DNA of 64,000 nt from Candidatus Doudnabacteria bacterium (GTDB taxonomy: Bacteria; Patescibacteriota; Doudnabacteria; UBA920): NCBI GenBank assembly GCA_016218585.1, contig JACRDK010000004.1:85347-149346 (forward strand), in the 5' to 3' direction. The translations under genes were made by a program, and so were the position numbers. The notes under the pieces were generated by a model, which made no database searches, was not told where the DNA came from, and was given only the letters and a program-made list of their open reading frames with translations. Positions 52,104-53,708 of this stretch are shown in pieces (the first letter of the stretch is position 1; the number at the start of each line of letters is the position of its first letter).

Positions 52104-53150
52104 CTAAAACAGCTGCACTACAATTAAGTCCAACAAAACGCGCGGCGGGGTGCTGGAGGTTTTAAGCTCTTCATCCAGCGCTTTTAACTTATTTAAAAAA
52201 TCCAAAACTTTTTTATTGGCAAAACGGCTGGCAATTTTCTTCATAACAAACAAGCGGCCGCTTTTCCACCCGGTCATTTCCAAAATATCGCCTTCGGTTT
52301 TCTTTTGTTCAGTTAAATCCTGAATCATGGCAACATTACGGAATTGCTCAGCCAGCAATGCATTTAACTGGATAATTGCCGTTTTTTCGTCTGCGGTTGC
52401 CTGCTGGCGCAAAAATCCATGCATTAACTGAAGCGATTTTTGTTTATCGTTATCGGCAATGGCATTGGTAAGCTCAAATACATCCACTTCCCCATTTTCT
52501 GAAACTAAATTATTTACATCTTTTGCCTGAAGAACAGAACCGTTGGCAAAGGCAGCTAATTTTTTTAGCTCGGAATCGGCCTGCCATAAATTATAAACTT
52601 CTTGAACATCTATAATTTTTCCGCCAACTTTAGTTTCTTTTGCTGCATCGCGGCCCAAGCGAACGGCCAACGCTTCCAAAGCCTCGTTGTCCATTGAAAG
52701 TTTGTAATCCTGAGCGCGTTGTTTTAACCAGTTATTCAATTCTTCCCCGTGCGGCAAAGCAAACTGCCTAACTTCAACTTTTGGATTAGCCAACATTTTT
52801 TTATTGTCGGCATTTCTTTTGTCCAGTTTTTCCTCTAAAAAAATTATATGATTTTTGCCGCCAGCCAAAGAATTTACAATGGCCTCGTCTGCAAATTTGG
52901 CGGCCATATTTCTTAAGACGTAAATTTTTTGCTTAGAAAACAGGTCCTGGCCGGCCAAATCCTCGGCCATAGGCATATTCTCGGCATCACTAAAAATTTC
53001 AGGCTTAATGCCCAATTTTTGCTCTAAAACGGCCACTTGTTGCTGTTTCTCAAAGTCATTTGGGCCTAAAAACAAATATAACATAACTCCCTTGAAAATA
53101 TTAGATAAATATGGTAAAATATCAAAGACTTGAAAATTTGCTACCCTCAC
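52104..53150 (-). CDS. holA: DNA polymerase III delta subunit
   Basis: Length and pattern typical of holA; likely true start at internal MLYLFLGP; moderate. Confidence 0.6.
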   Translation of the reverse strand: MRVANFQVFDILPYLSNIFKGVMLYLFLGPNDFEKQQQVAVLEQKLGIKPEIFSDAENMPMAEDLAGQDLFSKQKIYVLRNMAAKFADEAIVNSLAGGKNHIIFLEEKLDKRNADNKKMLANPKVEVRQFALPHGEELNNWLKQRAQDYKLSMDNEALEALAVRLGRDAAKETKVGGKIIDVQEVYNLWQADSELKKLAAFANGSVLQAKDVNNLVSENGEVDVFELTNAIADNDKQKSLQLMHGFLRQQATADEKTAIIQLNALLAEQFRNVAMIQDLTEQKKTEGDILEMTGWKSGRLFVMKKIASRFANKKVLDFLNKLKALDEELKTSSTPPRVLLDLIVVQLF

Positions 53151-53152
53151 AT

Positions 53153-53228
53153 GGGTCGGTAGCTCAGCTGGTAGAGCAGTAGCCTCTTAAGCTATTTGTC
53201 GTGGGTTCGACCCCCACCCGACCCACCA
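53153..53228 (+). tRNA. tRNA-Lys (anticodon CTT) with encoded CCA
   Basis: Hand-folded cloverleaf: GGGTCGG/CCGACCC acceptor, D-arm GCTC..GAGC, anticodon arm GTAGC-CTCTTAA-GCTAT, T-arm GTGGG-TTCGACC-CCCAC. Confidence 0.85.
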
Positions 53229-53432
53229 CGTCGTTCGCGAACGACGTGGCCCACCATGCACCATTCGCTCGTTTTCAGACGACTAGTTCATCATAGAATA
53301 ATGACATCACTAATTGATGTCATTTTTTATTAGGCGCCCAATGGTGCTCCCGGCAACCTGCCCGTCCTGTCTACCGATAGGCAGGCGGCAGGCAGGGATT
53401 CGTCTTCTGGTATACGATTCAGATTCTAAATT

Positions 53433-53508
53433 TCTGGTGCACCCGGCAAGATTCGAACTTGCTACCTTCCCGATGTACATCGGGACGCTCCCCGCCCGCA
53501 CGACTCGT
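53433..53508 (-). ncRNA. tRNA-like 3' element (hairpin plus T-arm plus 7-nt acceptor strand plus ACCA) lacking a canonical 5' half
   Basis: Reverse complement ends ...CCCGATGTACATCGGGAAGGTA GCAAG TTCGAAT CTTGC CGGGTGC A CCA; matching 5' acceptor strand GCACCCG lies 136 nt upstream at 53638-53644, on the other side of tRNA-Arg. Confidence 0.35.
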
Positions 53509-53583
53509 CTGGTGACCTCGGCAGGAATCGAACCTACATCACTGGTTTCGAAGACCAGTGCTCTATCCATTGAGCTACGAGGC
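53509..53583 (-). tRNA. tRNA-Arg (anticodon TCG) with encoded CCA
   Basis: Reverse complement GGCCTCGTAGCTCAATGGATAGAGCACTGGTCTTCGAAACCAGTGATGTAGGTTCGATTCCTGCCGAGGTCACCA folds as a cloverleaf. Confidence 0.8.
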
Positions 53584-53708
53584 CGTCAGGCGAGTCGAGC
53601 GGATATCCAAATGCCTGTCCGCCTCGGGCGGAAGCTTACGGGTGCATTTATCCCAATAATTATAGCTTAAGCCGAAAGTTTGCGCTACATAGGCCCAATT
53701 ACAAAAAT

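Follow-up and report, generated by a model that had tools for sequence, protein, structure and literature searches.

A tRNA-Arg gene nested in the D-loop of a tRNA-Arg relic in Candidatus Doudnabacteria, and a family of similarly nested genes in bacteria of the Candidate Phyla Radiation

When we analyzed a stretch of 64,000 nucleotides from a Candidatus Doudnabacteria genome (the 64-kb window, whose numbering is used for the coordinates of the locus), we found on its minus strand a complete tRNA-Arg(UCG) gene that is nested inside the D-loop of a second, disrupted tRNA gene. The insert is a non-coding cassette of 113 bp (53491-53603), which comprises a 19-nt flank, a tRNA-Arg(UCG) of a sequence type that we term type B, and a 19-nt complementary flank, and which lies between A21 and G22 of the enclosing gene. 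Judging from sequence comparison, the enclosing split tRNA-like element is the ancestral tRNA-Arg(UCG) gene of the lineage. Nested genes of this build recur in other Doudnabacteria and in metagenomes, and the cassette probably represents a family of self-targeting, non-autonomous replacement elements of the Candidate Phyla Radiation (CPR) that is specific for tRNA-Arg genes; its mobility we infer from its distribution. The parts of the nested locus are, from 5' to 3' (L numbers denote other loci that were compared):

53633-53645, minus strand: 5' part of the outer (ancestral, type-A) gene with GCACCCG (53639-53645), U8, A9, an extra A and the D-stem strand GCT, GCACCCGTA(A)GCT; equal to positions 1-12 of L002/L017 apart from the extra A
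53614-53632, minus strand: 19-nt GC-rich mini-hairpin insertion TCCGCCCGAGGCGGACAGG inside the outer D-stem, missing from the intact relatives
53604-53613, minus strand: outer C13 and D-loop ATTTGGATA (positions 13-21; shared stretch CATTTGGATA), identical to L002/L017; the cassette follows directly after A21
53585-53603, minus strand: cassette 5' flank TCCGCTCGACTCGCCTGAC, which ends directly before G1 of the inner tRNA and has one mismatch to the family motif CCGCCCGACTCGCC
53510-53584, minus strand: inner complete tRNA-Arg(UCG), type B, with encoded CCA; ARAGORN tRNA-Arg(tcg), Rfam RF00005 at 72.4 bits against a gathering score of 29
53491-53509, minus strand: cassette 3' flank GACGAGTCGTGCGGGCGGG, complementary to the 5' flank (inverted repeat I2), a helix in the minimum free energy (MFE) fold and homologous to the family 3' flank ACGAGTCAGGCGGGCGGG
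53486-53490, minus strand: outer D-stem 3' strand GAGC and G26 (positions 22-26), identical to L002/L017
53468-53485, minus strand: 18-nt perfect palindrome TCCCGATGTACATCGGGA (inverted repeat I11) in place of the outer anticodon arm; the relatives have a 17-nt arm, CTTGGCTTCGAACCAAG
53435-53467, minus strand: outer variable loop, T arm, acceptor 3' strand, discriminator A and CCA, 33/33 identical to L002/L017

The outer gene has its undisrupted counterpart in two relatives (L002, 2737-2813; L017, 1970-2046), which carry an intact tRNA-Arg(UCG) gene of 77 nt (GCACCCGTAGCTCATTTGGATAGAGCGCTTGGCTTCGAACCAAGAGGTAGCAAGTTCGAATCTTGCCGGGTGCACCA). It is because the 5' end, the D-loop, GAGCG, the last 33 nt and the upstream promoter block are those of this intact gene that we consider the outer element ancestral, and since GAGCG at 53486-53490 matches positions 22-26 of the relatives, the insertion point is position 21/22. 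A preliminary description of the locus had placed the 5' acceptor strand GCACCCG of a split tRNA-like element at 53638-53644 and had judged its match to be beyond chance. The strand was correct and the coordinates have to be shifted to 53639-53645; comparison with the orthologous locus identified this heptamer as the 5' acceptor strand of the intact tRNA-Arg in L002 and L017, to which nearly the whole outer element corresponds. The 3' element that had been described is likewise present, with T-arm GCAAG-TTCGAAT-CTTGC, acceptor strand CGGGTGC, A and CCA, and it ends at 53435. That the element lacks D and anticodon arms holds for the Arg anticodon arm, whereas both D-stem halves and the D-loop survive with two insertions between them.

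In the outer gene, all acceptor pairs (7/7) and all T-stem pairs (5/5) are formed and the CCA is kept. When both insertions (53614-53632 and 53491-53603), neither of which matches an intron family in Rfam, were removed in silico, a complete cloverleaf was obtained, which ARAGORN reads as tRNA-?(gtac) with an 8-nt loop (AUGUACAU). Because of this 8-nt anticodon loop the window's outer gene cannot be a tRNA-Arg; its Arg anticodon (C35) arm has been replaced by the palindrome. Hairpins related to this palindrome (TCCCGAC...GTCGGGA) occur in other outer copies, and mini-hairpins homologous to 53614-53632, (C/T)CCGCC-NNN-GGCGG(G/A)CAGG, were found in the outer tRNA-Arg of L054, L070 (reverse orientation, position 37/38) and L115.

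The inner gene is the sole intact tRNA-Arg at the nested locus. Both the cloverleaf and the anticodon assignment of a canonical bacterial tRNA were recovered by ARAGORN and Rfam, and the only correction to the preliminary description is that its coordinates (53509-53583) were one base low. Most relatives have a type-A gene, from which this sequence differs, and the inner tRNAs of L015, L029, L019, L095 and L142 are similar to it. Thus, the earlier suggestion of a tRNA gene that was disrupted by a tRNA-Arg-carrying segment is borne out, with a type-A gene that is intact in relatives as the outer part and a flanked type-B cassette as the insert.

The two flanks of the cassette form an inverted repeat (I2), which reaches 25 nt with 80% complementarity when it is extended into the inner acceptor stem, and the ends of the family (CCCGCCCG...CGGGCGGG) are terminal inverted repeats of the kind that characterizes miniature inverted-repeat transposable elements (MITEs). 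As had been proposed, we folded the region of 212 nt and found a nested structure, which was more stable than all 200 shuffled sequences (z = -4.25); a further fold of the region gave z = -5.9. In the MFE folds, an outer cloverleaf carries on its D-loop a rod (CCCGCC.GACUCG.CUG / CAG.CGAGUC.GGCGGG) that is stacked on the inner acceptor stem, and the rod of the standard flank pair contains two C.A mismatches. The long-range pairing of CCGCCCG with CGGGCGG that had been proposed is real but ambiguous, as the upstream CCGCCCG lies in the self-folding mini-hairpin 53614-53632 and the homologous partner of the 3' flank is 53585-53603.

Across loci, the flank stem varies in sequence and nevertheless stays complementary (CCCCACACTTTC/GAAAGTGTGGGG, CCCCGCTAAATT/AATTTAGCGGGG, CCCTGTCGCTCA/TGAGCGACAGGG). 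With arms picked by eye in 11 elements, 96% of the cells were paired and 10 of the 12 pairs changed on both sides, whereas slid controls gave 42-48%. Only the outermost two or three pairs (C-G) are conserved, and a TGAAG tail is common to three elements. When flanks of 35 nt were paired, the duplexes of nested genes amounted to -26 to -40 kcal/mol (L033: -18.9) and those of un-nested genes to -6 to -19 kcal/mol. In silico, the inner cloverleaf had a higher pair probability with the flanks than without them in loci whose inner and outer copies are similar (L095, 0.86 vs. 0.57; L162, 0.54 vs. 0.11; L053, 0.85 vs. 0.48), and deletion of the flanks had no effect on the inner fold in L072, L081, L141 and L144.

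Nested genes recur within the Doudnabacteria. Here, we compared 36 species-level holA loci besides those that had already been found. The gene order pilM ... small open reading frame (ORF; 99 aa in L002/L017), tRNA-Arg, tRNA-Lys, holA is common to the relatives, and what the preliminary description had called a tRNA hotspot is merely this conserved tRNA-Arg/tRNA-Lys/holA synteny. At the tRNA-Arg position two types of tRNA-Arg(UCG) alternate, type A with 77 nt and type B, to which the window's inner gene belongs, with 75-76 nt. A flanked inner gene with outer relics was found in 9 of the about 27 loci that have a tRNA-Arg (the window, L010, L014, L015, L019, L027, L028, L033, L037). Type B is nested inside type A in the window, L015 and L019, and type A inside type B in L014 and L037. 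All insertion points fall into loop parts of the tRNA, namely the D-loop, the T-loop or the anticodon loop. The window's 5' flank is also present in L014, L027 and L044, and in low-GC metagenome contexts.

One of these loci, L014 (1130-1600), is multilayered, with a type-B outer gene whose D-loop holds a type-A cassette and whose T-loop holds a third, odd tRNA-Arg with an A1-C72 mismatch and a score of 52 bits. There are two live tRNAs, and further relics (ATA..., ATTCAAATCCTG, CCGAGTGCGCACCA) and another 3' flank lie beyond them. Three other loci (L044, L032, L018) show the flanks and no detectable outer relic. Among the type-A genes (L002-L045), positions 8-48 are nearly invariant across species, and the first five to six acceptor pairs differ in nearly every genome and are always compensated (GCACCCG, GACTCCG, GCTCTCG, GACCTCG, GTGCCCG, GTGTCCG). 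Repeated replacement by cassettes may contribute to this variability of the acceptor stem as compared with the barely changing body.

To the wider family we gained access by scanning the Joint Genome Institute (JGI) metagenomes for exact matches of the 18-mer CCGCYCGACTCGCCTGAC, and the figures given here refer to the matches listed. High-GC matches were chance hits inside unrelated sequence. On contigs with a GC content of no more than 0.52, the 18-mer (CCGCCCGACTCGCCTGAC) was followed within 0-2 nt by a complete tRNA-Arg in at least 35 of at least 46 distinct contexts, and the inner anticodons were cct (15), tct (10), tcg (6), ccg (3) and gcg (1). The sites are precise to the nucleotide. Upstream, the 18-mer is preceded by ...GGATA-C, the end of the tRNA-Arg D-loop, or in six loci among the matches listed by ...CTTC-C, a site inside the anticodon. 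In two-sided loci, the inner tRNA is followed by 1-16 nt, (A/G)CGAGTCAGGCGGGCGGG and the outer tRNA-Arg from position 22 (GARC...) or 36 (TAAG...) onward. Correspondingly, in the alignments the pieces upstream cover inner positions 1-21 or 1-35 and those downstream cover 22-end or 36-end, and since they abut in this way, no target-site duplication was seen at the junctions of the metagenome loci. Three hosts could be named: Magasanikbacteria (L054), Kerfeldbacteria (L100) and Doudnabacteria (L162). The holA proteins on the metagenome contigs are 22-28% identical to that of the window, yet the flank is identical.

Among the matches listed, inner and outer anticodon were the same in 21 of the 21 readable two-sided cases, which cover five anticodons. 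The inner body was identical or nearly identical to its own outer body in L095 (1.00), L094 (0.95) and L162 (0.95), whereas L054 and L079 share identical inner bodies and differ at about 10 positions (hand count) in their outer 3' parts. Some inner genes thus match their own outer gene and others match inner genes on other contigs, from which we conclude that foreign alleles are imported and that copies are also homogenized locally. About 40% of the matches listed are one-sided and have the 5' flank only. The outer copies of other loci show extra mini-hairpins, mismatched or chimeric D-stems, deletions and variable decay, and in L165 two identical insertions follow one another.

Two of the metagenome contigs deserve separate mention. 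L094 carries two nested genes (gcg and tct) about 210 bp apart, and the GCG of one inner/outer pair is unusual for a bacterial tRNA-Arg; in both genes the cassette is preceded by an identical D-loop hairpin, GTCCCGACCCAAAGGGCGTCGGGAT, and this identity suggests that isoacceptor genes have undergone conversion. L088 (about 351) is the only non-Arg case among the matches listed: here a tRNA-Val is interrupted at position 21/22 by a tRNA-Val(GAC) whose flank pair is reversed relative to the tRNAs, and this orientation turns the two C.A mismatches of the rod into G.U pairs.

These observations can be combined in the following model. The inner tRNA would be the gene that works now, and it would be transcribed from the old promoter within one precursor. 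In this precursor, the flanks are predicted to pair into a rod of about 15 bp that is stacked on the inner acceptor stem. The rod would hold the inner ends together and apart from the homologous outer fragments, and ordinary processing of tRNA 5' and 3' ends would then release the inner tRNA. Loops of tRNAs (21/22, 35/36, T-loop) would be the targets of the family, each member would bring the isoacceptor that it disrupts, and members could be stacked in layers; in an essential single-copy gene they could persist only because the cassette supplies the same isoacceptor. Layers would be expected because each new functional copy again contains the target GGATA/GARC (insertion at the slash). Redundancy may be lost by recombination between the directly repeated inner and outer bodies, and one-sided forms would be understandable because such recombination would produce exactly these.

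For the movement itself, we consider two candidate routes. Transfer could be driven by homology, with the outer halves serving as arms in natural transformation or in ectopic conversion between tRNA-Arg genes, and such transfer would explain the specificity for Arg without an enzyme. Alternatively, an enzyme encoded elsewhere might recognize the base of the stem on folded single-stranded DNA or on RNA. When ORFs within 3 kb of 43 loci were clustered, no transposase or integrase family recurred and only syntenic housekeeping genes were seen. A phage vector was rejected because the 18-mer had no match in the viral contigs of IMG/VR. We also considered a DNA-uptake sequence and rejected it, as the motif occurs only at tRNA-Arg.

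Several points weigh against the replacement-element interpretation. Neither a mobilizing enzyme nor a target-site duplication nor an empty/filled polymorphism between very close strains was found, and mobility rests on distribution. The exact-18-mer scan biases the census towards one flank family, and the choice of arms by eye makes the covariation test partly circular. In the window, deletion of the flanks in silico left the inner fold unchanged (0.954 in both cases). About one-third of the outer copies would be an intact tRNA-Arg after precise removal of the cassette, and most simple outer copies have 7/7 acceptor pairs when read by eye; this intactness could reflect selection on the outer copy instead of recent insertion. 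Finally, the same-anticodon rule and the near-identical inner and outer bodies of L095, L094 and L162 also fit local duplication or gene conversion.

An alternative to a replacement element would be a functional two-in-one gene, from which the inner tRNA is cut out and whose outer halves are either ligated, by a new bacterial splicing route for tRNA, or remain as a two-piece tRNA held together by acceptor and D stems. Such a gene would give two tRNA-Arg, or one tRNA and one tRNA-like RNA. The complementary outer acceptor strands in the window and most simple cases, with sequences that are specific for the lineage, speak for this proposal, as do a compensatory outer D-stem (GTTT/AAAC) across the insert of L054, the six reconstructed outer genes among the matches listed that ARAGORN called as tRNA-Arg with matching anticodon, and the perfect cloverleaf of the window's outer gene without its inserts. 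Nucleotide-precise junctions and a covarying flank helix are moreover features of elements that act at the RNA level. However, the window's outer copy has no Arg anticodon arm, many other outer copies have extra hairpins, chimeric D-stems, deletions or no 3' half, and the outer genes diverge faster than the inner ones. The predicted folds contain no bulge-helix-bulge (BHB) motif, no ribozyme or intron family was detected, and with an anticodon that is always the same the outer gene would add no decoding capacity. We therefore regard a two-in-one gene as unlikely, and we are equally doubtful that CPR bacteria use both molecules through a pathway of tRNA introns or tRNA fragmentation that depends on protein and has no known bacterial counterpart, for which the GC-rich rod would be the recognition element.

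Similarly improbable, in our view, is that no dedicated element exists and that the nested genes arose by local duplication, illegitimate recombination or gene conversion among tRNA-Arg alleles acquired by transformation, the flanks being leftover processing stems of leader and trailer. The stem-flanked tRNA-Arg genes that have no outer relic (L044, L032, L018), the near-identity of inner and outer bodies in some loci and the common one-sided forms, which fit direct-repeat recombination, are consistent with such an origin; in addition, type IV pilus genes adjoin the locus and no transposase is found nearby. It is difficult to reconcile with the 18-nt flank, which is identical across hosts whose holA proteins are only 22-28% identical, and with the use of the same two insertion positions in many genes of five isoacceptors. 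Furthermore, some inner genes are identical between loci while their outer genes differ, and the repeated layering in L014 and L165 is hard to obtain from random recombination.

A transfer-messenger RNA (tmRNA)-like or other tRNA-like non-coding RNA that encloses a tRNA, which the preliminary description had also considered, appears very improbable. Acceptor stem, T arm and CCA of the outer element are intact and the fold is stable (z = -4.25 and -5.9), but the outer pieces are the orthologous tRNA-Arg gene of the relatives, and this orthology already contradicts the idea. The Arg anticodon arm is lost and outer copies decay variably. Neither ARAGORN nor Rfam (E up to 10) reported a tmRNA, including the two-piece form, there is no G3-U70 (pair 3-70 is A-U) and no tag reading frame, and tRNA was the only Rfam family in the window to come anywhere close to its gathering score when matches up to E = 10 were admitted; in seven further nested loci, too, Rfam reported tRNAs only. 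A class II tRNA (Leu or Tyr) with a long variable arm was rejected as well, since L002 shows that the 3' 33 nt are those of a tRNA-Arg. An assembly artefact that merged two strain alleles is scarcely conceivable: the source is a metagenome-assembled genome (MAG) and two tRNA-Arg types coexist in the lineage, but the outer 5' end, the mini-hairpin, the flank and the inner junction were all found again, identical, in an independent Logan assembly (L001), and the same architecture is seen in dozens of assemblies from different projects and assemblers, with nested L019 on a contig of 949 kb.

Around the nested locus of the window, the following further features were recorded:

53659-53687, minus strand: promoter-like block TAGCGC, 17 nt, TATAAT (-10 hexamer 53659-53664) upstream of the outer gene, conserved in the alignment with intact L002 and L017
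53342-53402, minus strand: older relic made up of CGAATCC, a 39-nt GC-rich hairpin (53357-53395) and TTGCCGGGAGCACCA (direct repeat D2); a second tRNA-Arg 3' end with a hairpin at the T-loop
53300-53324, unstranded: hairpin between the Arg locus and the convergent tRNA-Lys, called as a terminator on the plus strand and also present in the minus-strand fold

From its sequence and position, the promoter-like block presumably drives the whole nested transcript; a simple promoter scan made no call for it. The hairpin at 53300-53324 is probably a terminator in both directions, as far as its predicted fold can tell. When the hairpin is taken out, the older relic matches the type-A segment from T-loop to CCA at 21 of 22 positions, and a fraction of 0.0005 of shuffled sequences scores as high. 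The duplicated attachment site suggested earlier is partly supported in that a 3'-end relic lies 93 nt downstream (53342-53356, 14/15), but there is no integrase and the main structure is nested. We rejected an integrase-mediated integrative element, as the neighbors are pil genes (type IV pilus) and holA, no integrase is present and the 15-nt 3'-end repeat bounds merely 93 nt of non-coding DNA. The holA gene is found at 52104-53150 and its protein is 100% identical to one from a Candidatus Doudnabacteria MAG. A tRNA-Lys(ctt) gene at 53153-53228 is convergent to tRNA-Arg. Its CCA end overlaps a perfect 24-nt palindrome, CCACGTCGTTCGCGAACGACGTGG (53226-53249, plus strand), directly after which a CCCACCA repeat and then TGCACCA follow (53226-53262); this palindrome may be another palindromic insertion or a 3'-end relic.

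Elsewhere in the Doudnabacteria, the orientation of tRNA-Lys(ctt) relative to holA flips (L002, L007, L010-L045), with about half of the loci in either direction, and in L018, L032, L044 and L045 the tRNA-Arg is inverted as well; these inversions indicate that the small tRNA region has been rearranged repeatedly. L005 and L006 (95-520) have no tRNA-Arg between tRNA-Lys and holA and instead a 79-aa GIY-YIG nuclease ORF (PF01541, E = 8e-19) with direct repeats (TTCGCCAAGGCTACGAAGTGCAGGCAC) on both sides, an arrangement reminiscent of a small, mobile nuclease cassette next to a tRNA. Upstream of the intact tRNA-Arg of L007, a 5' relic (2680-2745), GCACC[TGCCTGCCGGCAGGCAGG]CCCGTAGtTCATT, was found, which is a tRNA 5' fragment with a CCTGCC...GGCAGG mini-hairpin; L050 and L134 have hairpins of this type at position 21/22, and the older relic of the window has one too. 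In L013 (2040-2200) and L039 (1980-2110), the tRNA-Lys is kept and ARAGORN finds no tRNA-Arg; the stretch is unusually GC-rich with many short palindromes and may be a heavily degraded pile of cassettes.

Should the cassette be a self-targeting replacement element, we would be dealing with a minimal selfish gene, which survives by destroying and replacing an essential single-copy gene, and with a handle on the movement of DNA between the uncultivable lineages of the CPR. Use of the outer copies, if it occurs, would point to an unrecognized bacterial route of tRNA splicing or fragmentation. In practice, tRNA finders report the inner gene only, and relics and layers go unannotated.

Among known systems, integrative elements (phages, plasmids and integrative and conjugative elements, including those of the pNOB8/SSV type and that in the Caldiarchaeum tRNA-Thr) insert into tRNA genes and bring a replacement for the displaced segment (PMC3293823). 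The nested genes resemble them in that a copy carried by the element makes the insertion harmless and a relic of the old gene is left beside it. In contrast, the cassette has 113 bp, encodes no integrase or recombinase and carries a whole tRNA rather than a 3' segment. It lies inside the D-loop (21/22) or the anticodon loop (35/36), so that the old gene encloses the new one, and it is restricted to tRNA-Arg.

Enzymatically spliced introns at non-canonical positions, mobile introns and split or tri-split tRNAs are found in archaea such as Thermoproteales, Nanoarchaeum and Caldivirga (PMC10714607, PMC4033280). They share with the nested genes GC-rich complementary sequences beside the tRNA halves, insertions in D-, anticodon and T-loops, the presence of several insertions per gene and evidence of spread between tRNA genes. 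The differences are the bacterial host, the absence of a predicted BHB motif, an insert that is a full tRNA of the same isoacceptor, the decay of many outer genes and the fact that splicing is not needed. An archaeal-type BHB intron was rejected, as the MFE folds of the window and five further loci, which are thermodynamic predictions, show a continuous rod from the D-loop and no two 3-nt bulges separated by 4 bp.

Intervening sequences of bacterial 23S and 16S rRNA are excised by RNase III and the rRNA is not re-ligated. Here too, an extended helix sits in a loop of a structural RNA, and removal at the RNA level could leave fragments that are held together by the host RNA; a stem of this type is present in our predicted folds. 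However, the host RNA is a tRNA in the present case, and the insert carries a functional gene.

MITEs, doublets of repetitive extragenic palindromic sequences that form hairpins (REPINs) and the GC clusters of yeast mitochondrial DNA are small palindromic insertion elements. Like these, the cassettes are short, non-coding, GC-rich inverted repeats in an AT-rich genome and have mini-hairpin derivatives. What sets the cassettes apart is that they have no target-site duplication and no other copy of the motif in the 64-kb window, they are confined to loops of tRNA-Arg, they carry a tRNA as cargo and their subterminal stem covaries. Genome-wide GC-hairpin MITEs were rejected as well, as the other perfect GC-rich hairpins of the window are ordinary and terminator-like and none belongs to the cassette family.

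The only established class of interruptions in bacterial tRNA genes are group I introns (PMC4033280). These have a catalytic core of about 100 nt with about 10 helices and mostly reside at position 37/38, whereas the cassette has no match to an Rfam intron and sits at 21/22. A group I intron or known ribozyme was rejected, as Rfam gave no match of this kind for the window (E up to 10) nor for the seven further nested loci, and 75 of the 113 bp of the insert are tRNA. Known disruptions of tRNA genes comprise group I introns, enzymatically spliced introns, split, tri-split and permuted genes and integrase-mediated insertions, and a review table of tRNA gene types has no nested class and lists only group I introns for bacteria (PMC4033280). 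In the literature that we searched on nested, split or disrupted tRNAs in CPR/Patescibacteria, no description of nested tRNA genes was found. Because those defining features of the known systems that we examined (integrase, BHB motif, catalytic intron, target-site duplication, and dispersed copies within the 64-kb window) were not seen, the review table has no nested class and no description was found, we rate the arrangement as new: a complete tRNA at a fixed nucleotide inside a tRNA gene of the same isoacceptor apparently constitutes a new kind both of tRNA gene organization and of insertion element.

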